Positions 17,133 to 61,219 are shown, numbered from the stretch's first letter. The stretch: 64,000 nt of DNA from Vicinamibacterales bacterium (GCA_023717525.1 JAMQPK010000194.1:6064-70063); one strand, 5' to 3'. Notes: generated by a model from the sequence alone, not told the origin. Program-made: numbers and translations.

Positions 17133-18539
17133 TTGGCCCCACCAACGCCGCCCCAGCGCGCACCCATCCTTCTCGTCGAGGACAAGGACTCCCTTCGGCA
17201 GATGCTGCGTCTGGCCATTGAGGGCCAGGGGCACACCGTCATCGAAGCACGGGATCAGCCCGACGCCGTTCGGACGATGCAACAGTCCCGGCCGTCGCTC
17301 GTGTTGACGGATCTTCGGTTGCCGGAAGGCGACGGTTTCGGCGTCCTTCGGGCGGCGAAGGAACTTGATCCGCAGCTCCCTGTGATCGTGATGACGGCTT
17401 ACGGCAGTATTCAGGATGCCGTTGCGGCGATGAAAGAAGGGGCGCTCGATTTCCTGGCGAAACCTGTCGATCCCGATCACCTGCTGTTGATGGTCGAGCG
17501 CGCGCTGGCCCAACGGCGGTTGCTGACCGAATACATCCTGCTGAAGGAAGAGCTGGCCACGCGTAGGGGCGCGCCGCTGATTATCGGAGAGGCCCCGTCG
17601 CTGAAGAACGTCATCTCCGCTCTTCAACGGGCAGCGGGCACTGACGCGACCGTACTGCTCGAGGGTGAAAGCGGCACTGGCAAGGAGTTGTTCGCGCGTG
17701 CGCTTCACGCGCTCAGCGAACGGTCCGATGGACCATTCGTCGCCATCAACTGCGCGGCCATTCCCGACAACCTGCTCGAGACTGAATTGTTCGGTCACGA
17801 GAAGGGCGCCTTCACCGGCGCGGTGGCCCGCAAGCCGGGGAAATTCGAGCTCGCCCATCGCGGCACGCTGTTCCTCGACGAGATCGGAGACCTGCCGATC
17901 GGCCTGCAGGCGAAGATTCTGCGCGCGCTCGAAGAGCGCCGGTTCGAACGCGTCGGCGGCACGTCGTCGTTGCAGGTCGATGTGCGGATCGTCGCGGCGA
18001 CCAACAAGGGACTTCGCATGGCCGTCGCCGCGAAGCAGTTTCGCGAGGATCTCTACTTCCGGCTGTCGGTGTTTCCCATCACGATTCCACCGCTGCGCGA
18101 GCGCAAGGACGACATTCCGATTCTCGCCCGGCATTTCGTCGAGCGATTCTGCCGCGATCTGAACAAGAAGGTCGCGACCCTTGCGCCCGGGGCCATCGAA
18201 GAGCTGCAGCGCTACGGATGGCCCGGGAACGTGCGCGAGCTTCAGAACTGCATGGAGCGGTCGGTGATTCTCGCCGACACCGACACCATTCACGCCCGCC
18301 ATCTGAACCTGGCGCTGCATGCGCCCCTTCAGCCGGTCGAAGCGCCAAACCCATGGACGTCGTTCGACTTTTCGGGATCACTGGCGGACGTTGGCCGGCG
18401 CGCGCAGCTCGAAGCAGAGCGCCGTAAGATTACGCAGACGTTGCAGGAGACGGCGGGCAACAAGATGCGCGCAGCGGAAACCCTCGGGGTGAGCTACAAG
18501 GCGTTTCTGATGAAGATGAGGGAGTGCGGGATCGAATAG
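17133..18539 (+). CDS. sigma-54-dependent response regulator (NtrC family, PilR-like)
   Basis: Receiver domain (LLVEDKD...DLRLPEGDG). AAA+ domain with GESGTGKE, GAFTGA and Walker B LFLDEI. C-terminal Fis-type HTH (AAETLGVSYKAFLMKM). Confidence 0.9.
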   Translation: MAPPTPPQRAPILLVEDKDSLRQMLRLAIEGQGHTVIEARDQPDAVRTMQQSRPSLVLTDLRLPEGDGFGVLRAAKELDPQLPVIVMTAYGSIQDAVAAMKEGALDFLAKPVDPDHLLLMVERALAQRRLLTEYILLKEELATRRGAPLIIGEAPSLKNVISALQRAAGTDATVLLEGESGTGKELFARALHALSERSDGPFVAINCAAIPDNLLETELFGHEKGAFTGAVARKPGKFELAHRGTLFLDEIGDLPIGLQAKILRALEERRFERVGGTSSLQVDVRIVAATNKGLRMAVAAKQFREDLYFRLSVFPITIPPLRERKDDIPILARHFVERFCRDLNKKVATLAPGAIEELQRYGWPGNVRELQNCMERSVILADTDTIHARHLNLALHAPLQPVEAPNPWTSFDFSGSLADVGRRAQLEAERRKITQTLQETAGNKMRAAETLGVSYKAFLMKMRECGIE

Positions 18540-18580
18540 GGCAGAGGGCAGAGGGCAGAGGGCAGAGGGCAGAGGGCAAG
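18539..18580. repeat. tandem heptamer array (GGGCAGA) x5 plus a degenerate GGGCAAG
   Basis: Read directly. It starts on the last base of the response-regulator stop codon and is the inverted partner of 19088-19122. Confidence 0.9.
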
Positions 18581-18701
18581 AACTGCGACTTAGTTGCCTC
18601 TTCGGAATTGCACTAGCTGCGTTGCGCGGCACGGTACTACGCAGAATCAGCGGCGAAATCGCGTTGTACGGATCGGCATCGCCGATGAATCATCAGTCGG
18701 C

Positions 18702-19082
18702 ATGTCGAACTCTATCATCTGCGACCGTTCGTTTCAGTTTGCCTCGAGGACTCTGACACTGTGCGATCGGCTGTACAAGCGCGGTCCCTCTGGGCGCCAC
18801 CTGGCATCACAGCTCCTGAGCTGCGCGACGTCGATCGGCGCAAATGCCGAGGAAGCGCAAGAGGCTCAGACCAAAGCGGATTTCATTGCAAAGCTGAGTA
18901 TCTCGCGTAAGGAGGCGCGCGAAGCGACGTGGTGGCTGCGCCTCGTCGTGAAGAACAACCTGGCAACGGCTAACGACGTCGAGTGGGAGTTGAGCGAGGC
19001 GCGCCAGCTCCTCGCGATGATCAGAAGCGCGATCCTTACGGCGCGAGCGTCATCTGAACGCGGTGCGAATGCACGATCTTGA
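18702..19082 (+). CDS. four-helix-bundle protein (23S rRNA intervening-sequence protein family, PF05635/TIGR02436-like)
   Basis: MSNSIICDRSFQFASRTLTLCDRL...SIGANAEEAQEAQTKADFIAKLSISRKEAREATWWLRL. The ...NIAEG/ANAEEAQ and KE..ET.YWL pattern is characteristic of this family. Confidence 0.8.
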   Translation: MSNSIICDRSFQFASRTLTLCDRLYKRGPSGRHLASQLLSCATSIGANAEEAQEAQTKADFIAKLSISRKEAREATWWLRLVVKNNLATANDVEWELSEARQLLAMIRSAILTARASSERGANARS

Positions 19083-19087
19083 CGGCC

Positions 19088-19122
19088 CCTGCCCTCTGCC
19101 CTCTGCCCTCTGCCCTCTGCCC
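19088..19122. repeat. tandem heptamer array (TCTGCCC) x5, reverse complement of 18539-18580
   Basis: Read directly. It begins 6 nt after the four-helix-bundle stop and ends 12 nt before the aroB stop. Confidence 0.9.
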
Positions 19123-19134
19123 TGACATGGCTCT

Positions 19135-20214
19135 TTACCTCTTCAGCCCAATCTTCCTCAGCGCCTTCCCCAACTCTTCCTCCGTCACATCCTTCGCCGT
19201 CGTCCACGATCCGATGCCCGTGCAAAGGACGTAGTGCAGCGTTCCATCGACGATCTTCTTGTCGTGCCGCGCTGCCTCGAGCACTTCTTTGGTTGAGAGG
19301 TCCCCGACCGGAGGAAGCGGCCCGAGCTTCATGATGATCGTGCCGAGCGCGTGGCGGTCCGTTGCGGGCATCGCACCGCGCGCAACGCCGATCTCTGCCG
19401 CCGCGAGCATGCCATAGGCGATCGCTTCTCCGTGGCGGAAGCGCTTGTACTTGGTCACGACCTCGAGTGCGTGGCCGGCCGTGTGGCCGAAGTTCAGCAT
19501 CCGCCGAGGTCCGGATTCCTTCTCGTCGAGAGACACGACCGACGCCTTTATCTGGCAGGACTCCGCGATGATGGGCACGAGCGCGTCGCCTTTCCTCGCG
19601 AAGATCGCGTCGATCTCCCGGCCGATGCGGTCGAACAGGTCGCGGCTCGACGTCATGCCGTACTTGATGACCTCGTAGAGGCCCGCACGGAATTCGCGGC
19701 GAGGCAGTGTTTCGAGAAGCGCGGGATCGATCGCAACCAGCGACGGATGGTAAAAAGCGCCGATCAGGTTCTTGCCCAGCGCGTGATTGACGCCGACCTT
19801 GCCGCCGATCGCGCTGTCGACCTGAGCAAGCAGCGTCGTCGGGACCTGGATCAGTCTGATGCCCCGCAGGTACGAGGACGCGATGAAGCCTGCCATGTCG
19901 CCGATCACGCCGCCGCCGACGGCGATCACCGTCGAACCGCGATCCGCTTCCAGCTTGATGAGCGACTCGTAGGCCCGCGACACCGTGACGAGTTGCTTGT
20001 GACGTTCGCCATCTGGCAGAAGGATGGGTTCGGTGCGTGGCGCCGCTTTGGCCATCGCCTTGCCGTGCAGTTTCCACACCAGCGGACTGGAAATGAAGAA
20101 CCGGCGTTTCGGTGTGTTGGACTGGTCGAGAAGCCGACCCAACTGCGCCGTCAGTCCGTGCTCGATAAAAATGGGATATCGATTCTGTCCAGCGCTGACG
20201 TCTACGCGGAGCAT
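19135..20214 (-). CDS. aroB: 3-dehydroquinate synthase
   Basis: 359 aa with GGGVIGDMAGF, RGIRLIQVPTTLLAQVDSAIGGK and HAxGHAxE-like FGHTAGHALE motifs. Confidence 0.9.
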   Translation of the reverse strand: MLRVDVSAGQNRYPIFIEHGLTAQLGRLLDQSNTPKRRFFISSPLVWKLHGKAMAKAAPRTEPILLPDGERHKQLVTVSRAYESLIKLEADRGSTVIAVGGGVIGDMAGFIASSYLRGIRLIQVPTTLLAQVDSAIGGKVGVNHALGKNLIGAFYHPSLVAIDPALLETLPRREFRAGLYEVIKYGMTSSRDLFDRIGREIDAIFARKGDALVPIIAESCQIKASVVSLDEKESGPRRMLNFGHTAGHALEVVTKYKRFRHGEAIAYGMLAAAEIGVARGAMPATDRHALGTIIMKLGPLPPVGDLSTKEVLEAARHDKKIVDGTLHYVLCTGIGSWTTAKDVTEEELGKALRKIGLKR

Positions 20215-20228
20215 TGGTGTTTAGTATC

Positions 20229-20263
20229 GAGTGACGAGTGACGAGTGACGAGTGATAAGTAAT
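20229..20263. repeat. tandem heptamer array (GAGTGAC) x3 plus degenerate GAGTGAT and AAGTAAT
   Basis: Read directly, 15 nt upstream of the aroB start codon (aroB is on the minus strand). Inverted partner of 20690-20710. Confidence 0.85.
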
Positions 20264-20273
20264 CCCGAAGGAC

Positions 20274-20663
20274 TCATCTCTGAGTTTCCCTCTCCTGAAG
20301 GCTCCTTCGAAGAGCATTGAGCATCTTGCGAAGTTCAACAATCGCATCGAGGACCGGCTTCACGTCCGCGACTTTGCAGAATCCGAGCTCGAGAGCGATT
20401 GTGAGTTGGGTGTCCACCTCCGCAACCGAACCCTCGGCATTTGAAACAAAGTGAATAAATTCCCGTGTACTGTAGCGAGCTTGACCTTCAGCGATGTTCG
20501 AAGGCACCGAGACCGCCGCCCGTCGCATTTGGGATATCAGGCCGAATCTTTCGCCATCCGGAAAGGTTTGGCTTGTTTGGTAAACCAACTTCACGAGCGC
20601 GATCCCCTTTTGCCACACGAGAAGATCCCGATAGCTGCCCACTTTCGTCCGGCCGTTCGGCAT
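20274..20663 (-). CDS. four-helix-bundle protein (23S rRNA intervening-sequence protein family)
   Basis: SYRDLLVWQKGIALVKLVY...ISQMRRAAVSVPSNIAEGQARYSTREFIHFVSNAEGSVAEVDTQL is the family signature. Confidence 0.8.
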   Translation of the reverse strand: MPNGRTKVGSYRDLLVWQKGIALVKLVYQTSQTFPDGERFGLISQMRRAAVSVPSNIAEGQARYSTREFIHFVSNAEGSVAEVDTQLTIALELGFCKVADVKPVLDAIVELRKMLNALRRSLQERETQR

Positions 20664-20689
20664 GGTTCCCCACGTAACACTTGTCCCTT

Positions 20690-20710
20690 ATCACTCGTCA
20701 CTCGTCACTG
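20690..20710. repeat. tandem heptamer array ATCACTC GTCACTC GTCACTG, reverse complement of 20229-20263
   Basis: Read directly, 25 nt upstream of the nadB start. Confidence 0.85.
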
Positions 20711-20735
20711 TACCGATGCAGTAGGATAGCATCCG

Positions 20736-22295: not shown

Positions 22296-24061
22296 AACAG
22301 TCAAAACTCCTAATCCAGACATACCGGGAAGCGCCCCGCGACGCCGACGTCATCAGCCAGCAGTTGATGATGCGGGCCGGCATGATCCAGAAGCTGGCCG
22401 CCGGCATCTACGACTATCTACCGCTCGCACTTCGAAGCATCCGCAAGTTCGAGGAGATCGTCAGGGAAGAGCTGGTGCGCGACGGCTGCCAGGAACTGCT
22501 CATGCCGGTCGTGCAGCCCCGCGAACTGTGGGACGAGAGCGCGCGCTGGCAGTTCTACGGCAGAGAACTGCTGCGCCTGAAAGATCGCAAGGACGCCGAT
22601 TTCTGCCTCGGGCCGACGCACGAGGAGGTCGTCACCGACATCGTCCGGAAGATCATCAAGAGCTACAAGCAGCTGCCGATTAACCTCTTTCAGATCCAGA
22701 CGAAGTTCCGCGACGAGATCCGGCCGAGGTTCGGGTTGATGCGCGGACGAGAGTTCATCATGAAGGACGGCTACTCCTTCCACGTCGACGATGCCGATGC
22801 GGACAGAGAGTATTGGCGGATGTTCGAGGCGTACAAGCGAATTTTTGCCAGGCTCGGCGTGAAGTTCCGCCCGGTCGAAGCCGACAGCGGAGCCATCGGC
22901 GGCAGCTTCACACACGAATTTCACGTGCTGGCTGGAAGCGGCGAGGATGCCATCCTGAGCTGCAACGCGTGCGAATACACCTCGAACGCTGAAAAAACAG
23001 AGGCACCCGGCCTGCCGTTCGGATACGCGAGCGAACCTGTGCTCGATCTGAAGCGGGCGCATTTCCATACGCCGGGGATTATCGCCATGGAAGAGCAGGC
23101 GAAGGCGTTCAGGGACGCCGAGCACAACGGCTTGCCTCTGGATCACGCCTCGAAGTTCTACCTGTATCGCGCCACCAGGGGCGATGCGACGTGGGACGCC
23201 GGGCTCGTCCTGCGCAGCGATCACGATCCCAATACGGTGAAGTTGAAGAATCTGATCGGCGCCGATTCGATTGATCTCGTGCCGCTCGAAGAGGCCGAGA
23301 AAAGAGCGGGAACGAAGTCGGGATTCATCGGCCCCGTGGACATGGATGTGTCGATGTACGTCGATCGCAGCCTTGAAGGTGCCTACAACCTGACGTGTGG
23401 CGCCAACCAGGAGGGGTATCACCACTTCGGCTTCAAGCCCGATCGAGATCTGAAGCAGATGAAAGGATTCCACGATCTGCGAATGGCGAGGGAAGGCGAT
23501 GTGTGTGCCCGGTGCGGGAAGGGAACCTACGAGGCCTTCCGGGGCATCGAAGTCGGACAGGTGTTCAAGCTGGGGACGAAGTACTCGCAGGCGATGTCGT
23601 GCGTCTTCAGCGACGAGGCGGGCCACGAGCGTCCCATGGTGATGGGCTGCTACGGCATCGGCATTACTCGCACGATCGCCGCCGTCATCGAACAGAACTA
23701 CGACGCCGACGGCATCATCTGGCCCTGGCCCGTCGCACCGTTCCACGTCCACCTGGTGAGCCTCGACTCCAACAAGCCGGAGATCGCGTCCGTGGCGAAT
23801 CGAGCCGAGAGCGATCTCGAAGCGGCCGGGTTCCAAGTCCTCCACGACGACCGCGACGGCCTGAGCCCTGGCGTGAAGTTCAAGGATGCGGATCTGCTCG
23901 GCATGCCGCTGCGCCTCACCGTCGGCGCGAAGGGGTTGAAAGATGGAATTGTCGAGCTACGCGATCGGCGTACGAAGGAAGTGACGAAGATTAAGCCCGA
24001 AGACGTCGTCGCGGCAGTTAAGGCACATCGTGAAAGAACAAACCACGAAGGCACGAAGTAA
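22292..24061 (+). CDS. proS: proline--tRNA ligase
   Basis: MKQSKLLIQTYREAPRDADVISQQLMMRAGMIQKLAAGIYDYLPL, 589 aa, with class II motifs. ATGA overlap with nadB. Confidence 0.95.
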   Translation: MKQSKLLIQTYREAPRDADVISQQLMMRAGMIQKLAAGIYDYLPLALRSIRKFEEIVREELVRDGCQELLMPVVQPRELWDESARWQFYGRELLRLKDRKDADFCLGPTHEEVVTDIVRKIIKSYKQLPINLFQIQTKFRDEIRPRFGLMRGREFIMKDGYSFHVDDADADREYWRMFEAYKRIFARLGVKFRPVEADSGAIGGSFTHEFHVLAGSGEDAILSCNACEYTSNAEKTEAPGLPFGYASEPVLDLKRAHFHTPGIIAMEEQAKAFRDAEHNGLPLDHASKFYLYRATRGDATWDAGLVLRSDHDPNTVKLKNLIGADSIDLVPLEEAEKRAGTKSGFIGPVDMDVSMYVDRSLEGAYNLTCGANQEGYHHFGFKPDRDLKQMKGFHDLRMAREGDVCARCGKGTYEAFRGIEVGQVFKLGTKYSQAMSCVFSDEAGHERPMVMGCYGIGITRTIAAVIEQNYDADGIIWPWPVAPFHVHLVSLDSNKPEIASVANRAESDLEAAGFQVLHDDRDGLSPGVKFKDADLLGMPLRLTVGAKGLKDGIVELRDRRTKEVTKIKPEDVVAAVKAHRERTNHEGTK

Positions 24062-24115
24062 GAACCACACAAGGACGCGAAGAAGAGACAATCATTTCAT
24101 CTTCGTGCCTTCGTG
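24044..24115. repeat. inverted repeat with perfect 15-nt arms CACGAAGGCACGAAG / CTTCGTGCCTTCGTG and a 42-nt loop
   Basis: Left arm 24044-24058 encodes the last residues of ProS (HEGTK) just before the stop. Right arm is 24101-24115. It lies between the convergent proS and tatC genes. Confidence 0.8.
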
Positions 24116-24143
24116 ATCTTAGAGCCTGAAGTCCGGAGTCCCG

Positions 24144-26972: not shown

Positions 26973-27210
26973 GTAAAAGGTAGGTCGAATACCACACTTA
27001 GCGTTCCAGTTTATCCTTGCCCCAGCATATGGGGCTTGTTACACTGGCGACCGTTTCGCGATCCCCGGGGCGCGCTTCGATTTCGAAGCGCAGGGGTCCA
27101 GATTCGGCCGCATTTGCACACCTCACAGGGTCTGATTCGTCTGGAGCGTCCCAGCCGCTCGTGGGTTTCGGTCTATCCGAAGCTTGCGCGCGGCGTTGTT
27201 TTGTACTTCT

Positions 27211-27245
27211 TAGTTTTCAGTTTTTAGTTTTCAGTTTCCAGTATC
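27211..27245. repeat. single-arm tandem heptamer array TAGTTTT CAGTTTT TAGTTTT CAGTTTC CAGTATC
   Basis: Read directly. It ends 6 nt before the smc ATG, and no inverted partner was found nearby. Confidence 0.8.
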
Positions 27246-30969: not shown

Positions 30970-31791
30970 ATGCCCCGTCAGCCCTCAGCCCTTAGCCCTC
31001 AGCCCTTGAAGGCATGGCTGGTCATCGTGCCCATGCTGGGCGCTGTCGCCTGCGATGTTCAGGTCCGCGAGGGAAACGTCAAGCTTGGCGTATTTTCCGC
31101 CGAGGCGAAGCAGGAGTGGATACGGGAGTATCCCTTGCCCGCCGGGGGCGAGGTGGAGATCGCGAACCTCAACGGGCCCATCGAACTCACCATGGGACCC
31201 GCGGGTCCTCTCGAGGTGCGGATCGACATCAGGGCAAAGTCGCTGACCGAGAGCATCGCCAGAGAGATCCTGAACAAGGGCAAGATTGAGGAGACGGTAT
31301 CGCTCGAACGGGTGAAGGTCGAGACGGTGGTTCCGAGAGGTATCCACGGGTCGTACGAAGCGCGCTACCAGGTCCGCGTTCCGCCTGGCGTCGCTGCCCA
31401 GGTTTCGACCACGAATGGATCGGTGAAAGCCGTCGGTCTCGCCGGCAAGCTGAAAGCGTCGGTGGTGAACGGAGCGGTTGAACTGACGGCGATCTCAGGG
31501 GCGCTCGATGCCGCGGTCGTGAACGGATCACTCGTGGTGAAGCTTGCGCAGGTGACGGCTCCGATACGGCTGGAGACCACCAATGGGCGGCTCACGCTGG
31601 AGCTGCCCAAGACGAGCCGGGCGGACCTCTCGGCGCGCGTCGTCAACGGCGGGTTGAGCGTGTCCGGGCTTCCCGTCGAGGAACCCGCCCAGCGGCGAAT
31701 CAGGAATCTCGAAGCGATGCTGAACGGCGGAGGCCCGACCGTCGATCTTCGAACCACAAATGGGCGGATCAGCATCACCGGCACGGAATGA
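30970..31791 (+). CDS. DUF4097-like beta-helix protein (putative lipoprotein)
   Basis: Repeated NG(S/A/G)(V/L) turns (TTNGSVKAV, VVNGAVEL, VVNGSLVV, TTNGRLTL, VVNGGLSV, TTNGRISI). The start is uncertain: a TTG at 31006 would give MKAWLVIVPMLGAVAC. Confidence 0.6.
   Translation: MPRQPSALSPQPLKAWLVIVPMLGAVACDVQVREGNVKLGVFSAEAKQEWIREYPLPAGGEVEIANLNGPIELTMGPAGPLEVRIDIRAKSLTESIAREILNKGKIEETVSLERVKVETVVPRGIHGSYEARYQVRVPPGVAAQVSTTNGSVKAVGLAGKLKASVVNGAVELTAISGALDAAVVNGSLVVKLAQVTAPIRLETTNGRLTLELPKTSRADLSARVVNGGLSVSGLPVEEPAQRRIRNLEAMLNGGGPTVDLRTTNGRISITGTE
30978..31005. repeat. tandem heptamer array TCAGCCC TCAGCCC TTAGCCC TCAGCCC
   Basis: Read directly. It lies either in the n-region of the predicted signal peptide (if the ATG at 30970 is used) or directly abuts a TTG start at 31006. 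Confidence 0.75.
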
Positions 31792-33798: not shown

Positions 33799-33846
33799 GA
33801 CGGTTCTCCTTACCGGGGGGGCTGGGTGAACCTGGACATTTGAAAA

Positions 33847-33890
33847 TTGAACATTGAAACATTGCAGCAATGCAATGTTTCAATGTTCCA
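33847..33890 (-). terminator. hairpin (18-bp perfect stem, 4-nt loop) built from GAACATT/GAAACATT units; probable pnp terminator
   Basis: GAACATTGAAACATTGCA-gcaa-TGCAATGTTTCAATGTTC. In minus sense it is followed by AAUUUUCAAAU. Confidence 0.55.
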
Positions 33891-36038: not shown

Positions 36039-36122
36039 AGTGAGTGATAGGTGATTGGGTGATCGGGAGTTCCAGTTGGAGATTGGATTTCCTATCGCAC
36101 AATCACCAATCGCACCGATCAC
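36039..36122 (-). repeat. imperfect long inverted repeat of GGTGATN-type units in the rpsO-pnp intergenic region
   Basis: Plus-strand left arm GTGAGTGATAGGTGATTGGGTGATCGGG and right arm CCTATCGCACAATCACCAATCGCACCGATCAC. Hand pairing gives a stem of about 25-30 bp with several mismatches or wobbles. Confidence 0.6.
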
Positions 36123-38751: not shown

Positions 38752-38786
38752 GAAAGTAGAAAGTAGAAAGTAGAAACTGGAAAGTA
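38752..38786. repeat. single-arm tandem heptamer array GAAAGTA x3, GAAACTG, GAAAGTA
   Basis: Read directly, between the infB stop (38802) and the rbfA start (38740). In gene sense it reads UACUUUC CAGUUUC UACUUUC x3. Confidence 0.85.
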
Positions 38787-43509: not shown

Positions 43510-44916
43510 TCATACGGGATTTTCACCGACAACGGCCGCGTCGCGCACGAAAACGGGCCGCGCCACCAGGTCGTACTCGCGAGATCCCACGATTTCGGCC
43601 TCAAGCAGCGTGCCCGGCCGCAACGACGCTGTATCGATATCGGTCAGGTAAACCACCGCATCGATGTCCGGCGCCTGGCCCATCAACCGGCCCCGCCACA
43701 CCAGCTCATGCTCGGGCGACGGACCGTCAATCATCACCTTGACCTGCGTCCCGAGGCGCTTCTTCTGCGCTCGTGAGACGATGCGCTTCTGTTCGGCCAT
43801 GAGCGCGTTCCGGCGCCGCGTCTTGACGCTCGTCGGGACGTCATCGACCAGGTCGTGCGCCGTCGTGCCTTCCTCGTGGGAGTAGGTGAACACGCCCACG
43901 TGGTCGAAGCCGACGCTCCGGACAAAATCCAGAAGCATCGCGAAGTCTGCGTCCGTTTCTCCGGGAAACCCCACGATGAACGTGGTGCGCAGCGCGACGC
44001 CCGGTACCCGCGCCCGGATTCTGGCAAGGAGCAGCTCGTATCCCCGGCCGGTGCCCGGCCGCTTCATCCGACGCAGGACGTCATCCGATGCGTGCTGCAA
44101 AGGCAGATCGATGTACTTGCACACCTTGTCGCACGCCGCCATCGCATCGAGGATGTCGTCGGTGATCGTCGTCGGGTAGAGGTAGAGCAGTCGAATCCAG
44201 TCGATGCCATCGACCTCGTTCAGCTCTCGAAGAAGCTGTGGAAGGGCGGCGCCGTAGCCTGCGTCCCGTCCGTAGAAGGTCGTATCCTGCGAAATCAGGA
44301 TGATTTCCCGGATGCCTCGCGCGGCGAGCGCGCGCGCTTCCCGCACGATCTCGTCGACCGGCCGGCTGCGGTAGTGGCCACGCAGCGTCGGGATGATGCA
44401 GAACGAGCACTTGTAGTCGCAGCCTTCGGCAACCTTCACGTACGCGAAATGCCGGGGCGTCGCAAACACGCGAGGCGAGTCGGCGTCATACAGGTAGGTG
44501 GGAAGGCTCTGGGCTTTCGGCTTTGGGCTCTGGGCCTGGCCCACGAGCTGCAACGGGATGACGCTGCGACGGGTGTTCTCGATCGCGCCGACGATTTCCG
44601 GAACATCCCCTGTGCCGAGCACCGCGTCAATCTCCGGAATCTGCTGCTTCAGTTCGTCGCGATAGCGCTCGCCCAGGCAGCCGGTCACGACCAGGCGTTT
44701 GCACCGGCCGTGCTTCTTGAATTCGGCCAGCTCCAGGATCGTGTTGATCGATTCTTCCTTGGCCTTGTCGATAAACGCGCAGGTGTTGACGACCAGGACG
44801 TCAGCGTCAGCCGGATCGGCCGTCAACGTGTGGCCGCCCTCCTGCGACAAGCCCATCATGACCTCGGAGTCGACGAGGTTCTTGGGGCAGCCGAGCGACA
44901 CGAAACCTACTTTCAT
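43510..44916 (-). CDS. rimO: ribosomal protein S12 methylthiotransferase RimO
   Basis: MKVGFVSLGCPKNLVDSE N-terminus, radical-SAM motif EGCDYKCSFCIIP, and a C-terminal TRAM domain. Internal ATG at 44916. Confidence 0.85.
   Translation of the reverse strand: MKVGFVSLGCPKNLVDSEVMMGLSQEGGHTLTADPADADVLVVNTCAFIDKAKEESINTILELAEFKKHGRCKRLVVTGCLGERYRDELKQQIPEIDAVLGTGDVPEIVGAIENTRRSVIPLQLVGQAQSPKPKAQSLPTYLYDADSPRVFATPRHFAYVKVAEGCDYKCSFCIIPTLRGHYRSRPVDEIVREARALAARGIREIILISQDTTFYGRDAGYGAALPQLLRELNEVDGIDWIRLLYLYPTTITDDILDAMAACDKVCKYIDLPLQHASDDVLRRMKRPGTGRGYELLLARIRARVPGVALRTTFIVGFPGETDADFAMLLDFVRSVGFDHVGVFTYSHEEGTTAHDLVDDVPTSVKTRRRNALMAEQKRIVSRAQKKRLGTQVKVMIDGPSPEHELVWRGRLMGQAPDIDAVVYLTDIDTASLRPGTLLEAEIVGSREYDLVARPVFVRDAAVVGENPV
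44505..44539. repeat. heptamer run GGCTCTG GGCTTTC GGCTTTG GGCTCTG GGCCTGG inside rimO
   Basis: Read directly. It encodes GQAQSPKPKAQS in the linker between the MTTase N-domain and the radical-SAM domain. Confidence 0.7.
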
Positions 44917-44923: not shown

Positions 44924-45010
44924 CGATTGGGCGATTGGTGAGTGGGTGATAGGAATGGCGGCCGCAAATCATTCACTCACCTGCAAATCACCCAGTCACC
45001 TATCACCAAG
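44924..45010 (-). repeat. imperfect inverted repeat of GGTGATN/GGTGAGT units between asnS and rimO
   Basis: Left arm CGATTGGGCGATTGGTGAGTGGGTGATAGG and right arm ATTCACTCACCTGCAAATCACCCAGTCACCTATCACCAAG. The central loop contains GGCGGCCGC. Confidence 0.65.
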
Positions 45011-47147: not shown

Positions 47148-47292
47148 CAGCCTTCAATCACCAACAAAGAAAACCACTAAGGTCAGAACCCGTCAAGAAA
47201 CGAACCTCCCAAGGCACAAAAGATCTTCGTGTTCTTGGGTGGCTCCTTTCTTCGTGCCTTTGTGTTCCGAGATCAGATCTGTTCTATTCAGT

Positions 47293-49838: not shown

Positions 49839-49915
49839 AACTTGAAACTAGAAACTGGAAACTGGAAAGTAACTTCAAAACTTACTTTCCAGTTCCTAGT
49901 TCCCAGTTTCAAGTT
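49839..49915 (-). repeat. 34-bp hairpin made of GAAACTR/GAAAGTA heptamers and their complement
   Basis: AACTTGAAACTAGAAACTGGAAACTGGAAAGTAA - 9-nt loop - TTACTTTCCAGTTCCTAGTTCCCAGTTTCAAGTT, hand-paired. 30 Watson-Crick pairs plus 4 transition mispairs. Confidence 0.9.
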
Positions 49916-51045
49916 ACACGGATTCTGTATGAAAGTCCCTTAAGCGTGGGCTTTCCCACGTCCTTCCCAAACAGCAGAACCTTGTGCGTGCTGCCGAGCC
50001 CGCCGGGCAACAGCAGGGTCTTCAGCGCAAGACGGCGCTGCATGGCCGAAGGCTCGAACGACTGATCCAGCGCCATCATCTCGTCCAAACCTAATCCCAG
50101 CATGAAGTAGGTCTGATCGAGACGGCCGAGAGACTCGAGGCCGGCCTGTTCGCCAGCTCTCGTGACGGCGGTGAGGTCGACATGCGCCGTGATGTCGCAG
50201 TCGCCCGGAGTCTGCAGGACCTCGGCGAATGTCGTGTGCGATTTGAAGGTCGTCAGCGTGCCTGCAGAGTGCGACGCTCCGTAAAGCTCCTCGGCGCTGT
50301 GCCCGTAGTCGATCACCATCATGAAGCCCTTCTCGAGCGAACGCGCGGCAGTGCCGACCCAGTCTTCGGCGGCAAGGTTGACCTCTGCGCGCCAGCCCTG
50401 ATGCATTTTGGCGCCGGCGCGCGACAGGTAATCGGAGATGCGCGGTGTCGACAGCGTCTCAAGGTACTCGACGAATTGCCCGTCCCGCTCGTCGACGAAG
50501 ATCTCGCGCAGGCCGGCGTCCGTCATGGTGACGGCGTGAGTGGGAAACGCGTCCAGGAGCTCGTTGGCGAAGATAACGCCGTAGACGTGTTCCGGCAGCT
50601 CGGCCGAGCTGTGCACGAGATGCGACGCATGATCGCCAAGCGTTGCGCGCTGGGCGCTTCTCGCCGCGGCCGATCGTTCGACGAGCGAGAGCCGGATCGA
50701 CGCGTAGAGATCTGGATCTGTGCGCTGAAGGGCGTCGAGAACATCCTTCGATAACCGCCCGTTGCCGCTGCCGGCTTCGACGAGGTCGACGGCTTCAGGC
50801 TTCGGGCTTTGGGCTTTGGGTCCGATCAAGCGAAGCATTTCGGCGATCTGCTTGGCGAGCAGTTCGCCGAATACGGCTCCGACATCGACGCTCGTAAAAA
50901 AATCGCCCGCGCGTCCAGTTCGCTGGGCCGCGCGGGCGTAGTAGCCAAACTCGGGCTGGTAGAGTGAGAGGTCCATGAACTCTGCGAAGCTGATCGGTCC
51001 GCTTTCGCGGATCCTTTCACTGATCAGCTGGCGGAGAGGATTCAT
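49909..51045 (-). CDS. class I SAM-dependent methyltransferase (DUF185, MidA/NDUFAF7 family)
   Basis: ISFAEFMDLSLYQPEFGYYA...GDFFTSVDVG...LVEAGSGNGRL. Confidence 0.75.
   Translation of the reverse strand: MNPLRQLISERIRESGPISFAEFMDLSLYQPEFGYYARAAQRTGRAGDFFTSVDVGAVFGELLAKQIAEMLRLIGPKAQSPKPEAVDLVEAGSGNGRLSKDVLDALQRTDPDLYASIRLSLVERSAAARSAQRATLGDHASHLVHSSAELPEHVYGVIFANELLDAFPTHAVTMTDAGLREIFVDERDGQFVEYLETLSTPRISDYLSRAGAKMHQGWRAEVNLAAEDWVGTAARSLEKGFMMVIDYGHSAEELYGASHSAGTLTTFKSHTTFAEVLQTPGDCDITAHVDLTAVTRAGEQAGLESLGRLDQTYFMLGLGLDEMMALDQSFEPSAMQRRLALKTLLLPGGLGSTHKVLLFGKDVGKPTLKGLSYRIRVT
50791..50818. repeat. heptamer run GGCTTCA GGCTTCG GGCTTTG GGCTTTG inside the MidA-like gene
   Basis: Read directly. 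It encodes KAQSPKPEA. Confidence 0.7.
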
Positions 51046-51047
51046 GG

Positions 51048-51110
51048 CTTCGGACTCCGGGCTCCGGACTCCAGGCCCAAAGCCTGAAGCCCGAAGCCCG
51101 AAGTCCAGAG
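51048..51110 (-). repeat. 29-position hairpin of GGCTYCG-type heptamers immediately upstream of the MidA-like start codon
   Basis: Hand pairing of 51048-51076 with 51082-51110 and a 5-nt loop gives 22 Watson-Crick pairs. Five further positions are C-A/A-C on the plus strand, which become G-U on the minus strand. Confidence 0.85.
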
Positions 51111-51111
51111 A

Positions 51112-56177: not shown

Positions 56178-56179
56178 GC

Positions 56180-56614
56180 ATGAAACGTTTCATCACGCTC
56201 CTGATGACGCTTGGGGCAGCGGTGCTGGCTCAGGCCGCCCAGGCTCCTGCGATTACGTCCATCGCTAAAGGGGACATGAGCGGCGTGCAGACGGCGCGCC
56301 AGGTCACGGTCCGCACGCTCGCCGAGTGGCAGAAGCTGTGGAAGGAACACGCGCCGGAAGAGAAGATGCCTGCCGTCGACTTCACCACACGCATGGTCGT
56401 CGGTATTTTTCTGGGATCGAAGCCGAGCGCCGGGTATGAAGTGGAGATCTTGAACGTGCGGCCGGAGGGAAAGGACCTCGTCGTCGAGTACGCTCAGAAA
56501 CAACCGGGGCGCGGCGCGATGGCCGCTCAGATTCTCGTCGAACCCTTCCACCTCGTCGCCGTCGCAAAACACGCCGGACCAGTGCGGTTCCTGCACGTGC
56601 CAGATACACGCTAG
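56180..56614 (+). CDS. PrcB_C-domain-like secreted protein
   Basis: Internal ATG gives the signal peptide MKRFITLLMTLGAAVLAQA. ...VDFTTRMVVGIFLGSKPSAGYEVEI... resembles the PrcB C-terminal domain. Confidence 0.55.
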   Translation: MKRFITLLMTLGAAVLAQAAQAPAITSIAKGDMSGVQTARQVTVRTLAEWQKLWKEHAPEEKMPAVDFTTRMVVGIFLGSKPSAGYEVEILNVRPEGKDLVVEYAQKQPGRGAMAAQILVEPFHLVAVAKHAGPVRFLHVPDTR

Positions 56615-56677
56615 TCCCTGGTCCTTTGTCCTTGGTCCTTTGTCCGGACCAAGAACGAAGGACCAAGGCCCAAGGAC
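56614..56677. repeat. imperfect inverted repeat GTCCYTK x4.5 / GGMCCAA x4.5 filling the gap between two convergent stop codons
   Basis: Hand pairing gives about 26 of 32 positions paired. Confidence 0.7.
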
Positions 56678-57169
56678 CTAAGAAGCTCCGGCTTTCACTG
56701 CCTTCAGCTTGACCGGCTTCACGGTGCCGTTGTTCTGCTCGAACTTGTATTGCGGCTGCGTCATCCCCGCCACCTTCGGCGACCTCAAGACGATCGTCGC
56801 CACGTCGAGCGGCTGGAGCGGCGTGCGGAGCCGCTGACGATCGCCGGTCCCCTGCAGAGGCTGTCCGGCCTTGTCGTACCAGAATTCCGTAATCTGCAGG
56901 CCGACGAGCGCGTTGGTCGCATGCATGTTCTTGACCTGGAAGGTCGTCACAATCGTGTTGCCTTCCAGCTTCGCCGACTGCATGAATCCCAACTCGGCGA
57001 CGCCGCGAAGGGGAGGCGCCGATTTCTTCAATACCGATGCCTGGGCCGAGGCTGGAGCCGCCGGAGCCTGAGCCGCCGGGGCCGCCGTTTGAGCCGACAG
57101 GGTCACCACCGCGGCTGAGGTCAGCACAGCGGCCGTTATCGCGATTCCAGACGCATATCGCACGCGCAT
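56678..57169 (-). CDS. secreted protein of unknown function
   Basis: Internal ATG with AAGGAG upstream. Signal peptide MRVRYASGIAITAAVLTSAAVVTLSAQ, an Ala/Pro-rich linker, and a beta-rich C-terminus. Confidence 0.5.
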   Translation of the reverse strand: MRVRYASGIAITAAVLTSAAVVTLSAQTAAPAAQAPAAPASAQASVLKKSAPPLRGVAELGFMQSAKLEGNTIVTTFQVKNMHATNALVGLQITEFWYDKAGQPLQGTGDRQRLRTPLQPLDVATIVLRSPKVAGMTQPQYKFEQNNGTVKPVKLKAVKAGAS

Positions 57170-57676: not shown

Positions 57677-59810
57677 TTGAGTCCTTTGCCTGCTGGGCAG
57701 CCGGCGCGTACATCTCTTCGACGTACTGCTTCAGCATGCGTGCAGCGCTGAACCGCGGAGTGACGGAGCGGATGCACTCCTTCACGATTCGAAGCCAGGC
57801 CTGCGGCACGCCGCGCTGGTCGCGCTGATAGTAGGTCGGCACAACTTGCTCTTCGAGCAGGCGATAGAGCGCGTCGGCATCGGCTGCGTCCTGTGCATCC
57901 TGATCGTCGAAAGGTCCGCCACCGTCGATCACCCAGCCGTTCGATCCATTGTAGCCCTCGGCCCACCATCCATCGCCAATGCTCAGATGCGGCACACCAT
58001 TGATGCTTGCCTTCATGCCGCTCGTGCCGCTGGCCTCGAGCGGCTTCCGCGGGGTGTTCAGCCAGACGTCGCAGCCCTGCGTGAGGAAGTGAGCCACGTG
58101 GAGGTCGTAGTCGTCCACGAATGCGATACGTCCGCCATAGATGGGGTCGATGGCATGCCGGTAGATCTGCTGAAGATGGCCCTTACCGGCGTCATCGGCG
58201 GGATGCGACTTGCCAGCGAAGACGATCTGCACGTGCCGCCGCGGCGACGCGAGGATACGGATCAACCGTTGCGGATCGCGAAAGATCAGCTCCGGCCGTT
58301 TATAAGCCGTGAAACGGCGGGCGAAGCCGATCGTGAGCGCGCTTGGGTCGAGCAACGGGCCTGCTGCGACAACCGCGGCGGCCGTCACGCCCTCCTGTCC
58401 CCAGCGATCGCGCGCGCGGTCGCGGATGAACGCAAAGAGGAACCTCTTCAATGCCGTGCGAGCGCTCCAGAGGTCTTCGTCCGGAATGTCGAGGACGCGA
58501 TCCCAGTACGCGGCTTCGTCGCTGCGGTCGCGCCAGTCGGGGCCGATGTGGCGCTCGACAACCCGCGCCATTTCCGCCGCCAGCCAGGTCGGCACGTGCA
58601 CGCCGTTGGTAATCGCTTTCAGCGGACGCTGCCGGTTCGCATCCCGCTCGGCCAGGATCGGCTCCCACATGGTGCGCGTCACGTCGCCATGGAGCCGGCT
58701 GACGCCGTTCGCGAAGCTGGACGTCCGGAGCGCGAGCGACGTCATGTTGAACTGACCGTGGTATTCGCCGAGCGACAGGAAGCGGCTGCGAATGTCGGCG
58801 AGTGGACCCCACGCGCCCTGTAAATGATGCTCGACGCGTTCGAACGAAAAGGCGTCGTGTCCCGCGGCGACCGGCGTGTGCGTCGTGAAGATCGTGGCCC
58901 GGCGCACGCGCTCCAGCGCATCGTCGAAGCCCGCGCCCTCGGCGATGTACTCGTAGATGCGCTGCAGGACGACGAACGCCGCGTGGCCTTCGTTCAGGTG
59001 CCACACGTCGGGTGTGATCCCGAGGGCGCGGAGCGCGCGGACGCCGCCGATGCCGAGAATGATTTCCTGCTGGAGGCGCGTTTCGCGATCGCCGCCGTAG
59101 AGTCGGGCCGACAGGTCTCGATCCTGCGGCGCGTTCTCTTCGAGCCCCGTGTCGAGCAAGTACAAGGTCACTCTTCCGACCGACACCTTCCAGACGTTGG
59201 TCAACACCGCGCGATCGCCCAGGGGCACAGCCACGATGCATGGGCTGCCGTCCGGCTTCAGGGCCTGCTCGATGGCGACGTCGGGCCAGTTGAGACGCTC
59301 GTATGTTTCGAGCTGCCAGCCCTCAGGAGAGACGTGCTGGTGAAAATAGCCCTGCGGGTACATAAAGCCCACGCCCACGAGCGGCACGCCAAGGTCGCTG
59401 GCCTGCTTACAGTGATCGCCGGCAAGCGCGCCGAGGCCTCCGGCGTAGATCGGCAGGGATTGATGAATGGCGAACTCGGCCGAGAAGTACGCGATCGTCG
59501 CCCCTTGTGCCTGGGGAAACCGCCGTGCCATCCACGTGTCTTTCGCCTCGTACGCCGCGTCCAGCCCGGCGACCGCCGCGTCGTACACACTGAGAAACTC
59601 CGGATCGCGCGCCGACTGCTCGAGCCGCTCTTGCGAGACGAGCCACAGCATGCGGACTGGGTTGTGCGCCGTCGTTCGCCACAACTGATAGTCGAGGTCG
59701 CGAAAAACCTTGCGGGGCGCGTGGTGCCAACTCCACCACAAATTCCCGGCGAGTTCGTCGAGACGCCCAATGCGCTCTGGAAGTGGCGGCAAGCCTTTAT
59801 AACGGTTCAT
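57654..59810 (-). CDS. glgP: alpha-glucan family phosphorylase
   Basis: 718 aa: LDELAGNLWWSWH, AYFSAEFAIHQSLPIYAGGLGALAGDH, and EASGTSGMKASINGV (PLP Lys region). Confidence 0.85.
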   Translation of the reverse strand: MNRYKGLPPLPERIGRLDELAGNLWWSWHHAPRKVFRDLDYQLWRTTAHNPVRMLWLVSQERLEQSARDPEFLSVYDAAVAGLDAAYEAKDTWMARRFPQAQGATIAYFSAEFAIHQSLPIYAGGLGALAGDHCKQASDLGVPLVGVGFMYPQGYFHQHVSPEGWQLETYERLNWPDVAIEQALKPDGSPCIVAVPLGDRAVLTNVWKVSVGRVTLYLLDTGLEENAPQDRDLSARLYGGDRETRLQQEIILGIGGVRALRALGITPDVWHLNEGHAAFVVLQRIYEYIAEGAGFDDALERVRRATIFTTHTPVAAGHDAFSFERVEHHLQGAWGPLADIRSRFLSLGEYHGQFNMTSLALRTSSFANGVSRLHGDVTRTMWEPILAERDANRQRPLKAITNGVHVPTWLAAEMARVVERHIGPDWRDRSDEAAYWDRVLDIPDEDLWSARTALKRFLFAFIRDRARDRWGQEGVTAAAVVAAGPLLDPSALTIGFARRFTAYKRPELIFRDPQRLIRILASPRRHVQIVFAGKSHPADDAGKGHLQQIYRHAIDPIYGGRIAFVDDYDLHVAHFLTQGCDVWLNTPRKPLEASGTSGMKASINGVPHLSIGDGWWAEGYNGSNGWVIDGGGPFDDQDAQDAADADALYRLLEEQVVPTYYQRDQRGVPQAWLRIVKECIRSVTPRFSAARMLKQYVEEMYAPAAQQAKDSSAPQISR

Positions 59811-61087
59811 CGAACCACCGATCGTAGTCGTGCCCCAGCGTCGCCGTCAACGAAGCTCCGCCGATAGTTCCTGAGCGCTGGAGTCGTCACCGCGATCCAC
59901 GCAGTGGCCACTAAACATCCGAGCCCTCCAGTGACGACCGACGCGCGCGCCCCGGCCCATTGCGCCACCAGGCCGGCCTCGAGTTCGCCCAGTTGTGGCC
60001 CTCCCTGAAAGAACACCATGTTGACACCGGTCATTCTTCCGCGCAGGTGGTCAGGCGTACCGAGCTGGCGGACGACGTTGCGAAGCACCATGCTGACGGT
60101 GTCGGCGGCGCCCGTGGCGGCGAGACACAGGAAGGTCAGCCAGAACGCCTGCGAAATACCAAAGACGATGGTGGCTCCGCCGTACGCGCACACCGCCCAG
60201 AGCAGTACCACTCCGCGCCGCTCGATGCGCTCGATCGAGCGCACCATGATCACGCTCGTCAGCACCGCGCCAATCGATGGAGCGGCGTACAGCCAGCCGT
60301 ATCCCTTCGCGCCAACGTGCAGGATGTCTTGAGCAAAGATCGGCAGCAGTGCGGTCGCCGACGAGAAAAACGTGGCGAAGAAATCCAGCAGCATCGTCGA
60401 TCGGATGATGGGATCGGCAAATACGAACCCCAGGCCCTCTTTGATGGCGCCAAGGCTGATTTCGCTGGCCTGCCGCGAATCGCGCGCCGGCACATCGCGC
60501 ATCATCAGCAGGGCGGCGATTACGAACACGAAGGTGAGCGCGTTCAGCAGGTACACCCAACCGACGCCCAGCGTGGCAATCACGATTCCGCCGAGCGCGG
60601 GTCCGGATACCGATGCGACCTGCAGCATGATCGCGTTCAGGCTGATGGCGTTCGGCAGGTGATCGCGGGGCACAAGCGTGGGCGTCAGCGACTGGCGCGC
60701 CGGACCGTCGAACGCGCCGGCCGAGGATCCGATCGCGGCCAGGAGATAGATGGGCCACGGCTGGGTCAATCCTCGAAAACTCAGAATAGCGAGCAGGACT
60801 GCGGTGACGCCCATCGCCGCCTGCGTCACGAGCATCACGCGCCGGCGGTCCCAGGCGTCGGCGACGGCACCGGCGGCTATCGAGAAACACACAATCGGCA
60901 AGAGGCGCACGAGACCGACCATGCCGAGCGCCAGCGCGCGCTTGTCTACCGGCACGAGCAGCGAGACGTGCCACAGAATCGCAGCCGTCTGCATCATTGA
61001 GCCCGAAAACGAAACAAGCTGGCCTGACCACAAAAGACGAAAGTTGCGATGCTGCAGCGCGACGAACGGGGACTTCGTGAACGACAA
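59807..61087 (-). CDS. MFS transporter
   Basis: 426 aa, about 12 TM, FRLLWSGQLVSFSGSMMQ N-terminus (EntS/YbdA-like subfamily pattern). TTG start. Confidence 0.8.
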   Translation of the reverse strand: MSFTKSPFVALQHRNFRLLWSGQLVSFSGSMMQTAAILWHVSLLVPVDKRALALGMVGLVRLLPIVCFSIAAGAVADAWDRRRVMLVTQAAMGVTAVLLAILSFRGLTQPWPIYLLAAIGSSAGAFDGPARQSLTPTLVPRDHLPNAISLNAIMLQVASVSGPALGGIVIATLGVGWVYLLNALTFVFVIAALLMMRDVPARDSRQASEISLGAIKEGLGFVFADPIIRSTMLLDFFATFFSSATALLPIFAQDILHVGAKGYGWLYAAPSIGAVLTSVIMVRSIERIERRGVVLLWAVCAYGGATIVFGISQAFWLTFLCLAATGAADTVSMVLRNVVRQLGTPDHLRGRMTGVNMVFFQGGPQLGELEAGLVAQWAGARASVVTGGLGCLVATAWIAVTTPALRNYRRSFVDGDAGARLRSVVR

Positions 61088-61103
61088 CGCGGGGAGTATA
61101 TCG

Positions 61104-61219
61104 CGTGGGAGAACGTGGGAGAACGTGGGAGAACGAAGGACAACGTAGGAGAGCGTAGGTCGCGTAGGAAAACGTGGGATTAACCCTACGTTCTCCTACG
61201 CCGCCTACGTTTTCCTACG
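61104..61219. repeat. tandem 9-10-nt array (CGTGGGAGAA x3, then degenerate CGTAGGNNNN units) whose inner four units pair with a downstream complementary array
   Basis: Read directly. Hand pairing of 61144-61178 with 61184-61219 gives a long imperfect stem. The units at 61104-61143 are unpaired. Confidence 0.85.

Follow-up and report, generated by a model that had tools for sequence, protein, structure and literature searches.

Inverted Arrays of Tandem Heptamers in an Acidobacterial Genome as Probable Terminal Arms of Cassettes Resembling the Intervening Sequences of 23S rRNA

Introduction

Intervening sequences (IVSs) of 23S rRNA that encode the S23p protein are the closest described relatives of the elements considered here. 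The structure of S23p has been solved since 2006, and to our knowledge no function of this protein is known. The IVS of Coxiella burnetii has a terminal stem of 28 bp and is excised by RNase III in vitro, its ends being mapped to the middle of the stem (PMC4990558). It contains tandem GACAGAT heptamers, the number of which varies between strains, and the 5′ RNase III site is located at the first heptamer repeat (PMC4990558). According to the same source, the Coxiella IVS protein is apparently not made, and S23p of Xanthomonas forms a homopentameric toroid (PMC4990558), in agreement with the five chains of PDB entry 2GSC. The present study concerns a stretch of 64,000 nucleotides from a Vicinamibacterales bacterium (GCA_023717525.1, JAMQPK010000194.1:6064-70063; the window), in which intergenic arrays of tandem heptamers probably represent the terminal inverted arms of S23p-type IVS-like cassettes located between protein genes, together with hairpins devoid of an open reading frame (ORF) and solo arrays.

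Heptamer repeats of the short tandemly repeated repetitive (STRR) type were reportedly found in cyanobacteria by Mazel in 1990. Heptanucleotide simple sequence repeats (SSRs) were reported to be in excess in many prokaryotes, and polymerase slippage was tentatively offered as the cause (Mrazek 2007, cited in PMC4692102). Xanthomonas contains about 186 GGGAATC arrays and has 70–75 inverted pairs of them (PMC4692102), paired inverted heptamers were described in Geobacter metallireducens (PMC2700814), and TAACTGA repeats were described in Beggiatoaceae (PMC4679880). All these repeats, as well as S23p IVSs and the heptamers of the Coxiella IVS, were known before. Each group of heptamers in cyanobacteria, Xanthomonas, Geobacter, Beggiatoaceae and SSR surveys was explained in its own and untested way, namely by G-quadruplexes, integration host factor (IHF) sites, translational regulators or slippage.

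Period-7 Arrays of the Window

An earlier note on this DNA, made from the sequence alone, reported tandem arrays with reverse-complement partners at a series of intergenic sites. Tandem Repeats Finder detected a period-7 array at every heptamer site of that series and a 10-mer array at 61104-61219. A lag-match scan of the 64-kb window gave 14 arrays in which a 7-nt unit is present in three or more copies, against 0 in 20 order-2 Markov shuffles, and only 0–1 arrays for each of the periods 5, 6 and 8–12. The arrays are real and far beyond chance. Twelve of 17 arrays are intergenic, although intergenic DNA makes up 7.4% of the window according to crude gene calls. In intergenic DNA, identity at lag 7 is 0.313, versus 0.25–0.28 at the remaining lags indivisible by 3, and coding DNA has a period-3 signal alone. 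Inverted pairs with short loops fold into stems of 18–37 bp with z from −3.2 to −11.2, in accordance with the pairing that had been proposed. The purine-rich arm comes first in 9 of the 11 paired elements; since this order is identical on either strand, the chirality belongs to the inverted pair itself.

The generalizations of the note apply to most of the sites rather than to all of them. Most arrays are followed by their reverse complement, but those at 27210-27242, 30975-31006 and 38752-38786 are solo and have no inverted partner. Most are intergenic, but the array at 30975-31006 overlaps an ORF, and two arrays that had not been listed (44505-44539 and 50791-50820) lie inside genes. The units do differ widely, more than 10 different ones being present within 45 kb, but four types of them (GGTGATN, CACGAAG-like, GAAACTG/GAAAGTA-like and GGCTYYG) are each shared by two or three sites. 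The degenerate CACGAAG-like copy indicated at about 47160-47275 does form a hairpin (z = −3.15), but its periodicity is weak.

No Rfam family matched the window at gathering scores, and there is no rRNA in it. The arrays do not correspond to CRISPR, which has repeats of 23–50 nt with unique spacers, because their units are 7 nt long and stand head-to-tail without spacers. As to miniature inverted-repeat transposable elements, inverted arms are present, and no direct (target-site) duplication was visible by inspection beside the two cassettes described below or the hairpins.

Two Cassettes with Four-Helix-Bundle Genes

The recurring architecture claimed in the note is real, and two of the array pairs enclose a whole gene, the identity of which the note missed: both genes belong to PF05635. 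Through this family the arrays are connected with an element that already has a name, the S23p-type IVS of 23S rRNA.

The first cassette, E1 (18536-19123, + strand), occupies the spacer between the gene of a sigma-54 activator (17133-18539) and the convergent aroB. Its purine-rich 5′ arm (18536-18578), consisting of about six copies of GGGCAGA, begins on the stop codon of the activator gene. The arm is followed by a leader (18579-18701), the ORF of a four-helix-bundle protein (18702-19082) and a pyrimidine-rich 3′ arm (19086-19123) of about 5.4 copies of TCTGCCC, which ends 12 nt before the stop codon of aroB. The protein matches PF05635 (E = 1.6e-16, 60.9 bits, cutoff 33.8) and TIGR02436 (E = 7e-21, 74 bits, cutoff 24); its start is likely the ATG at 18702, and a mechanical ORF call begins at the TTG at 18594. 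The two arms are Watson–Crick paired at 37 of 38 positions, and in the minimum-energy fold of the whole element they pair with each other, so that a stem of about 40 bp closes it (z = −8.3).

The second cassette, E2 (20228-20709, − strand), takes up the spacer that separates aroB from the divergent nadB. Read in the direction of its gene, it consists of a 5′ arm (20691-20709), (AGTGACG) × 2.7 on the − strand, located 26 nt upstream of the nadB start codon, an ORF of 129 aa (20274-20663) and a 3′ arm (20228-20255), (TCACTCG) × 4 on the − strand, located 14 nt upstream of the aroB start codon. The four-helix-bundle protein encoded by E2 was recognized by PF05635 (E = 1.6e-36, 125.2 bits, cutoff 33.8), TIGR02436 (119 bits, cutoff 24) and PDB 2GSC, i.e., XCC0516 of Xanthomonas campestris (E = 8e-27). 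Its arrays also pair when the whole element is folded, and a stem of about 30 bp closes it (z = −4.4). The proteins of E1 and E2 share just about 21% identity.

Homologs of the E2 protein with about 65% identity were found in Pyrinomonadaceae, Terriglobia and another acidobacterium. They have AGTGAYR-type arms and stand in unrelated gene contexts, either between genes of an extracytoplasmic function (ECF) sigma factor and a Ser/Thr kinase or within a sugar operon, which indicates that the gene and its arms travel together. The AGTGACG unit family of E2 also flanks homologs in the loci L162, L164 and L165.

Some features of the surroundings of both cassettes may be mentioned separately. In L162–L164, representing two distant Acidobacteriota, the sigma-factor gene beside the E2-type cassette belongs to PF07638, and the upstream arm of the L162 cassette runs into the end of this gene. 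E1 lies directly downstream of its activator gene, which is of the NtrC type, and its leader holds GGCATCGCCGATGA at 18672-18688. This is a copy of a subfamily-conserved motif, GGC-N7-TTGA, with sigma-54-like spacing, and it can be considered a candidate lead. The motif, conserved in the long-leader subfamily 24–30 nt before the start of the protein match, occurs in 44 of 81 loci versus 10.7 in shuffles. Its spacing fits the −24/−12 elements of sigma-54, yet the −12 element is GA and not GC; as a promoter, it would place the transcription start nearly on the ATG (window 18672-18688; leaders of L082–L124). A palindrome, GGCAGAnnCTGCC, is located about 100 nt upstream.

Distribution of the Cassettes in Relatives

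The generality of the link between gene and arrays was studied in 80 metagenomic loci encoding relatives of the E1 protein with 39–77% identity, found with a three-sequence alignment as a query. Among the 64 relatives with adequate flanks, period-7 arrays were present on both sides of the ORF in 49, on one side in 11 and on neither side in 4, and the density of arrays elsewhere in those loci was 0.17 per kb. In 55 cassettes, the arms proved to be 92% Watson–Crick complementary over 17–65 nt. Of the upstream arms, 93% are rich in purines, and of the downstream arms, 90% are rich in pyrimidines. The former are located either 10–40 nt or 110–180 nt before the ORF, and the latter mostly begin in the interval between about 30 nt upstream and about 40 nt downstream of the stop codon; a full cassette is 410–650 nt long. 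A full cassette is, then, a purine-rich heptamer arm, a PF05635 ORF and a complementary pyrimidine-rich arm, and the arms of one cassette are kept complementary.

The sampled cassettes have 64 distinct canonical units, and the distance between units correlates with the distance between proteins (Spearman 0.49, Mantel p ≤ 0.0005, 74 cassettes). Arms and genes are co-inherited as lineages, each with its own unit. From a shared period with differing sequence, the note had argued against the spread of one mobile sequence. This holds in the sense that no single sequence is involved; nevertheless, several cassette lineages, each with its own unit, appear to have spread, as follows from the co-divergence of unit and protein and from the presence of related pairs in unrelated neighbourhoods of different acidobacterial classes. 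No homolog of the protein was found in phage genomes at E ≤ 1e-6.

An association was also observed in a set of 80 proS loci that are unrelated and come from many phyla: 3 of 12 loci with at least two arrays contain four-helix-bundle genes, versus 0 of 68 others (Fisher p = 0.003). In the vicinity of cassettes, 6 of 49 ORF-less arrays are within one mismatch of the unit of the local cassette, compared with 2.1 expected (p ~0.02), which is a weak enrichment; two loci, L002 and L150, have an ORF-less hairpin with the unit of the local cassette. The ORF-less units of the window are at a mean distance of 1.21 from the units flanking four-helix-bundle genes versus 1.37 for the control, and this comparison is not discriminating, since 64 units, each taken in every rotation, reach most of the heptamer space at 1–2 mismatches.

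Comparison with the Orthologous Locus of a Close Relative

The nearest genome is a metagenome-assembled genome of Vicinamibacterales (Acidobacteriota) with a ProS 87% identical to that of the window, and L002 is its syntenic locus. It carries an orthologous E1 cassette (protein E = 1.5e-54), in which the unit is GGCAGAT instead of GGCAGAG, the complementary change being present in all the copies of both arms. The two arms of a cassette therefore change in concert. E2 is missing from L002, where the space between aroB and nadB is not empty but holds two membrane-protein genes. A heptamer hairpin is situated in the proS|tatC spacer of both genomes, but its units are unrelated, CACGAAG in the window and GGCAGAT in L002, the latter being also the unit of the cassette that L002 carries at a distance of 7 kb. 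The ortholog lacks the solo array before smc, and the TCAGCCC array (30975-31006) is degenerate there. These differences indicate that arrays were gained, lost or exchanged at sites between close relatives.

Cassettes of Cultured Organisms and Genuine Intervening Sequences

A search of plasmid proteins gave 26 records with four-helix-bundle homologs, mostly from heterocystous cyanobacteria. A plasmid cassette of Nostoc edaphicum with AGTAGGG/TCCCTAC arms is inserted between two ribonucleotide reductase genes, a cassette of Anabaena sp. 90 with ACAGGTG/CTGTCAC arms is located between cas6 and cas4, and Calothrix brevissima has GGGTGTA/CTACACC arms. Nostoc punctiforme has a GGAGTCA array with a short and partial downstream complementary motif only, and in Nostoc PCC 7120 the downstream arm alone is left, with transposase genes upstream of both plasmid copies. 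On plasmid 1 of Gemmatirosa kalamazoonensis (L171), the array downstream of the four-helix-bundle gene has period 8 (CTCCTGCC × 4). Together with the period 10 at 61104-61219 and the 8- and 9-mers of Geobacter, it indicates that the period is not always 7. The Anabaena cassette (L167, pANA02, 355-1174) contains many ACAGGTG blocks. Such cassettes may stand behind the association of a ‘23S rRNA IVP’ with CRISPR adaptation modules, mentioned in a figure legend of PMC10910872.

Azospirillum lipoferum has a cassette inside the 23S rRNA gene itself (RF02541, 1168 bits), with arms built of GAGGACG/GATGACA heptamers. This IVS extends a hairpin at positions ~1206–1226 of the large-subunit rRNA model, a site which, from the flanking sequence, we tentatively take to be helix 45. 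In Xanthomonas, a GGGAATC × 4 array overlaps the start codon of XCC0516, the gene of the 2GSC protein (supplement of PMC4692102). The heptamer arms of the Azospirillum and Coxiella IVSs and the array at XCC0516 show that classical S23p-type IVSs and the cassettes of the window share their build.

Hairpins without ORF, Solo Arrays and Intragenic Arrays

The remaining arrays of the window have no four-helix-bundle gene. Hairpin H1 (24044-24120; CACGAAG/CTTCGTG, z = −6.0) lies between the convergent proS and tatC, and H2 (33838-33890; GAACATT/AATGTTC, z = −6.4) has a stem of about 18–21 bp. H3 (36039-36122; GGTGATN) separates rpsO from pnp in a row of genes resembling nusA-infB-rbfA-truB-rpsO-pnp; the rpsO-pnp spacer of E. 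coli is a well-known RNase III site controlling pnp. H4 (44924-45010; GGTGATN-like, z = −3.3) stands between genes of a class II aminoacyl-tRNA synthetase and a MiaB-like protein, and H5 (47196-47262) is the degenerate CACGAAG-like hairpin mentioned above. The most stable one, H6 (49839-49915; GAAACTG/CAGTTTC, z = −11.2), has a 36 bp stem on the − strand. H7 (51046-51110; GGCTYCG/CGRAGCC, z = −8.8) forms on the transcribed − strand a continuous helix of 27 bp, with 6 G-U among 29 base pairs. H8 (56614-56681; GTCCTTK/MAAGGAC, z = −6.1) is one of the two hairpins of the window with the pyrimidine-rich arm first. In the period-10 array H9 (61104-61219; CGTGGGAGAA × 5, z = −6.8), the last units pair with an inverted array and the first three are unpaired.

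Three arrays are solo. The pyrimidine-rich YAGTTTT × 4.4 (27210-27242, + strand) ends 9 nt before the smc start codon, and TCAGCCC × 4 (30975-31006, + strand) overlaps the called 5′ end of a lipoprotein-like ORF. The third one, at 38752-38786, reads GAAAGTA × 5 on the + strand and is pyrimidine-rich on the transcribed − strand; it is situated in the spacer between infB and an ORF provisionally called rbfA-like from the reading of its translation, and its unit forms hairpins in L164. Two of these arrays, before smc and before the rbfA-like ORF, are pyrimidine-rich and stand directly upstream of start codons, thus resembling the TAACTGA repeats of Beggiatoaceae. In L165 (2130-2262), five different pyrimidine-rich heptamer blocks precede a gene in a row.

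Two arrays on the − strand are intragenic: GGCTYYG × 5 (44505-44539) corresponds to a linker of the MiaB-like gene, and GGCTTYG × 4 (50791-50820) is near the N-terminus of a Methyltransf_28 gene. They have the GGCTYYG unit in common with H7, which is 230 nt from the second array.

Other repeats and conserved parts of the window are as follows. A direct repeat, GTGACAACTATTGNCA × 2 (2022-2065), lies upstream of three tandem paralogous ORFs of 177–204 aa (2173-4003). A duplicated 9-mer of the CGGCGATCA type is present in each of these ORFs, and a classical GC hairpin with a T run comes after the first two. The ctpA|smc spacer is largely conserved between the window (26973-27200) and L002 (14640-14900), including a hairpin CCTTGCCCC...GGGGCTTG, and gave no Rfam match at gathering scores.

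Discussion

The assignment of the arrays to S23p-type IVS-like cassettes, their ORF-less hairpins and solo arrays, which we hold with moderate confidence, allows one to propose a scheme of their action. In a read-through transcript, the arms would pair into a perfect duplex of 20–40 bp, and host RNase III might cut it, by analogy with genuine IVSs. Such a cut would free the host RNA of the cassette and, where the cassette lies between cistrons, would break up the operon transcript. The number of copies in an arm may be set by replication slippage, and template switching or gene conversion between the arms may keep them matched at the DNA level.

Several observations weigh against this assignment or against parts of the scheme. 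Transcription and cleavage of the window cassettes are extrapolated from experiments with IVSs. On the sense strand, the arm mismatches of 55 cassettes include 25 G-U, 31 A-C and 60 transversion-type ones, with the reservation that mismatches within one hairpin are repeated with the unit and hence are not independent. An excess of G-U over A-C is absent, so selection for RNA pairing is not visible, and the complementarity looks as if it were kept at the DNA level. Among the eight ORF-less hairpins in a co-directional gene context, the transcribed strand gives the better fold in 4 and the opposite strand in 2, and neither is preferred in the remaining 2. A long duplex would serve RNase III equally without any periodicity, so the scheme leaves the period of 7 unexplained. 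The kinship of ORF-less arrays with the cassettes is suggested by the shared architecture, co-occurrence and the few same-unit cases of L002 and L150, and the units of 43 of 49 ORF-less arrays near a cassette differ from its unit by at least 2 bases. Finally, no recombinase that could mediate their spread is encoded by the cassettes.

A system with a cognate protein, similar to REPINs (hairpins of repetitive extragenic palindromic sequences, REPs) with RAYTs (REP-associated tyrosine transposases) or to an RNA regulon, would account for the period. In such a system, a toroidal pentamer would bind the heptamers of the cassette encoding it, as well as ORF-less copies built of that unit, each subunit having a footprint of 7 nt, and the binding would drive spread and maintenance or regulate host transcripts. 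The genes of the cassettes stand between their own inverted repeats, just as RAYT genes sit between their REPs. The toroidal form of Xanthomonas S23p, the homology of the family to Avd (PF22296, NF033474), a nucleic-acid-binding protein of diversity-generating retroelements, the recurrence of the local unit in L002 and L150 and the fact that one of the Xanthomonas arrays is at XCC0516 are consistent with this explanation. Co-divergence of unit and protein fits it too, but would equally be expected from plain co-inheritance. We nevertheless consider it unlikely: most of the nearby ORF-less arrays have other units, the median array has 3.8 copies with no peak at the five expected from a pentamer footprint, neither catalysis nor sequence-specific action is known for the family, and the Coxiella protein is apparently not produced (PMC4990558).

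It is improbable that the arrays are functionless by-products of slippage favouring 7-nt units and of template-switch correction of quasi-palindromes, tolerated in intergenic DNA only and linked to the gene by hitch-hiking. Slippage was tentatively put forward for the excess of heptanucleotide SSRs, copy numbers do differ between Coxiella strains (PMC4990558), and the types of mismatches bear no sign of selection for RNA pairing. However, slippage alone does not create a reverse-complement array 400–600 nt away. It also leaves unexplained why the purine-rich arm is the first in more than 90% of the pairs, why 60 of 64 genes of one family have flanking arrays and why unit and protein phylogeny go together across classes.

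Iterons acting at the DNA level as sites of a nucleoid-associated or global regulator, such as IHF or HU, were proposed for the same architecture in Geobacter metallireducens (PMC2700814), and the complementarity is apparently kept at the DNA level. For the window, this seems very improbable, since more than 10 units in 45 kb and 64 in the sampled cassettes are too many for one sequence-specific protein, the arrays are mostly between co-transcribed genes and at gene ends rather than at promoters, and it is hard to see what a constant purine-first order would mean for a site bound as a duplex. Transcription terminators or attenuators, which might be suspected from stable GC-containing intergenic stems, one of them between convergent genes, have almost no probability: a run of four or more T was absent from the 16 nt after each of the 11 paired elements, whichever strand was read, which excludes this explanation, several hairpins are in conserved operons that need read-through (rpsO-pnp, infB-rbfA), and the ORFs at 2173-3391, by contrast, do end in classical GC hairpins with T runs. 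G-quadruplexes (PMC4692102) are possible for GGG-containing units like that of E1, but most other units are incapable of forming them.

Returning to the IVS-like cassettes, a broader and more tentative view is that PF05635 cassettes and ORF-less hairpins make up one widespread selfish or regulatory class, in which the pentameric toroid would read its own heptamer, one unit per subunit. This class might underlie the excess of intergenic heptamers in STRR, Xanthomonas, Geobacter and Acidobacteriota. In the literature, which was covered incompletely, we found no paper stating that PF05635 genes are generally bracketed by inverted tandem heptamers, placing such cassettes outside rRNA or linking them to dispersed heptamer arrays.

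If the assignment is correct, IVS-type elements are not confined to rRNA; they reside inside core operons, as at aroB-nadB, or in the form of an ORF-less hairpin at rpsO-pnp, and could uncouple the fates of neighbouring cistrons. The link to the cassettes may help to explain the commonness of 7-base repeats in bacterial genomes. Joining heptamers and S23p gives a defined protein–repeat pair and defined RNA duplexes for RNase III, and it predicts that, in any complete genome, the units found at PF05635 genes should have counterparts among the families of dispersed arrays. From the practical point of view, the arrays can mimic CRISPR-like repeats and produce spurious associations between genes and repeats, and gene callers extend ORFs into them.

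Comparison with Known Systems

The statement of the earlier note that no described family matches these arrays was too strong, in view of the paired inverted heptamers of Geobacter metallireducens (PMC2700814) and Xanthomonas (PMC4692102). Its analogy with the REPs and bacterial interspersed mosaic elements (BIMEs) of enterobacteria extends to intergenic palindromic repeats with several families per genome and, for REPIN–RAYT, to a gene that is present in one copy and enclosed between inverted repeats of its own. In contrast to REP/BIME, the arms of the window are tandem 7-mers and not one conserved imperfect palindrome of 20–40 nt, and the two flanked genes encode PF05635 four-helix bundles and not a Y1 transposase. 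Avd of diversity-generating retroelements has a homologous four-helix-bundle fold forming a pentamer (matches to PF22296 and NF033474), but the family match is 21.5 bits, well under the 80-bit cutoff, and neither reverse transcriptase nor template and variable repeats are present next to the genes studied.

The other analogy of the note, with cyanobacterial STRR, turned out to be apt. Both groups are tandem heptanucleotide repeats of intergenic DNA, and the plasmid four-helix-bundle genes of Nostoc, Anabaena and Calothrix are flanked by STRR-like inverted heptamer arrays. The host, however, belongs to Acidobacteriota rather than to heterocystous cyanobacteria, and the units differ from the described STRR units. 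Intergenic tandem heptamers are likewise formed by GGGAATC in Xanthomonas and GGGGAYT in Nostoc (PMC4692102) and by TAACTGA in Beggiatoaceae (PMC4679880), and the arrays of the latter, like the solo arrays of the window, are near start codons. Unlike the window, these genomes have one dominant unit each; their repeats were explained as G-quadruplexes, which most window units cannot form, or as regulator sites.

The sites of Geobacter metallireducens (PMC2700814) are tandem hepta-, octa- and nona-nucleotides of classes 1–3, named ‘putative global regulator binding sites’ and read as IHF/HU sites. They resemble the window elements in being inverted pairs of about five tandem heptamers on opposite strands with variable spacing, in intergenic DNA, including that inside operons. 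They differ in having one unit per class, compared with many units in the window, and the class 3 unit, MTYCTGA, is found in no window array. No link to a four-helix-bundle gene was drawn in that paper.

S23p-type IVSs of Leptospira, Coxiella, Xanthomonas and alphaproteobacteria differ from the window elements in their location, which is helix 9, 25 or 45 of 23S rRNA and not spacers between protein genes, and the window adds many ORF-less and solo arrays. Excision by RNase III was demonstrated experimentally for genuine IVSs (PMC4990558) and is proposed for the window cassettes by analogy. In the remaining respects the two are alike: a PF05635/TIGR02436 ORF scoring above the cutoffs in both E1 and E2, an element of about 400–600 nt closed by complementary termini, a patchy distribution suggestive of horizontal spread and, although this is not a published defining feature of IVSs, termini built of heptamers, as in Azospirillum and Coxiella on the one hand and in E1 and E2 on the other.

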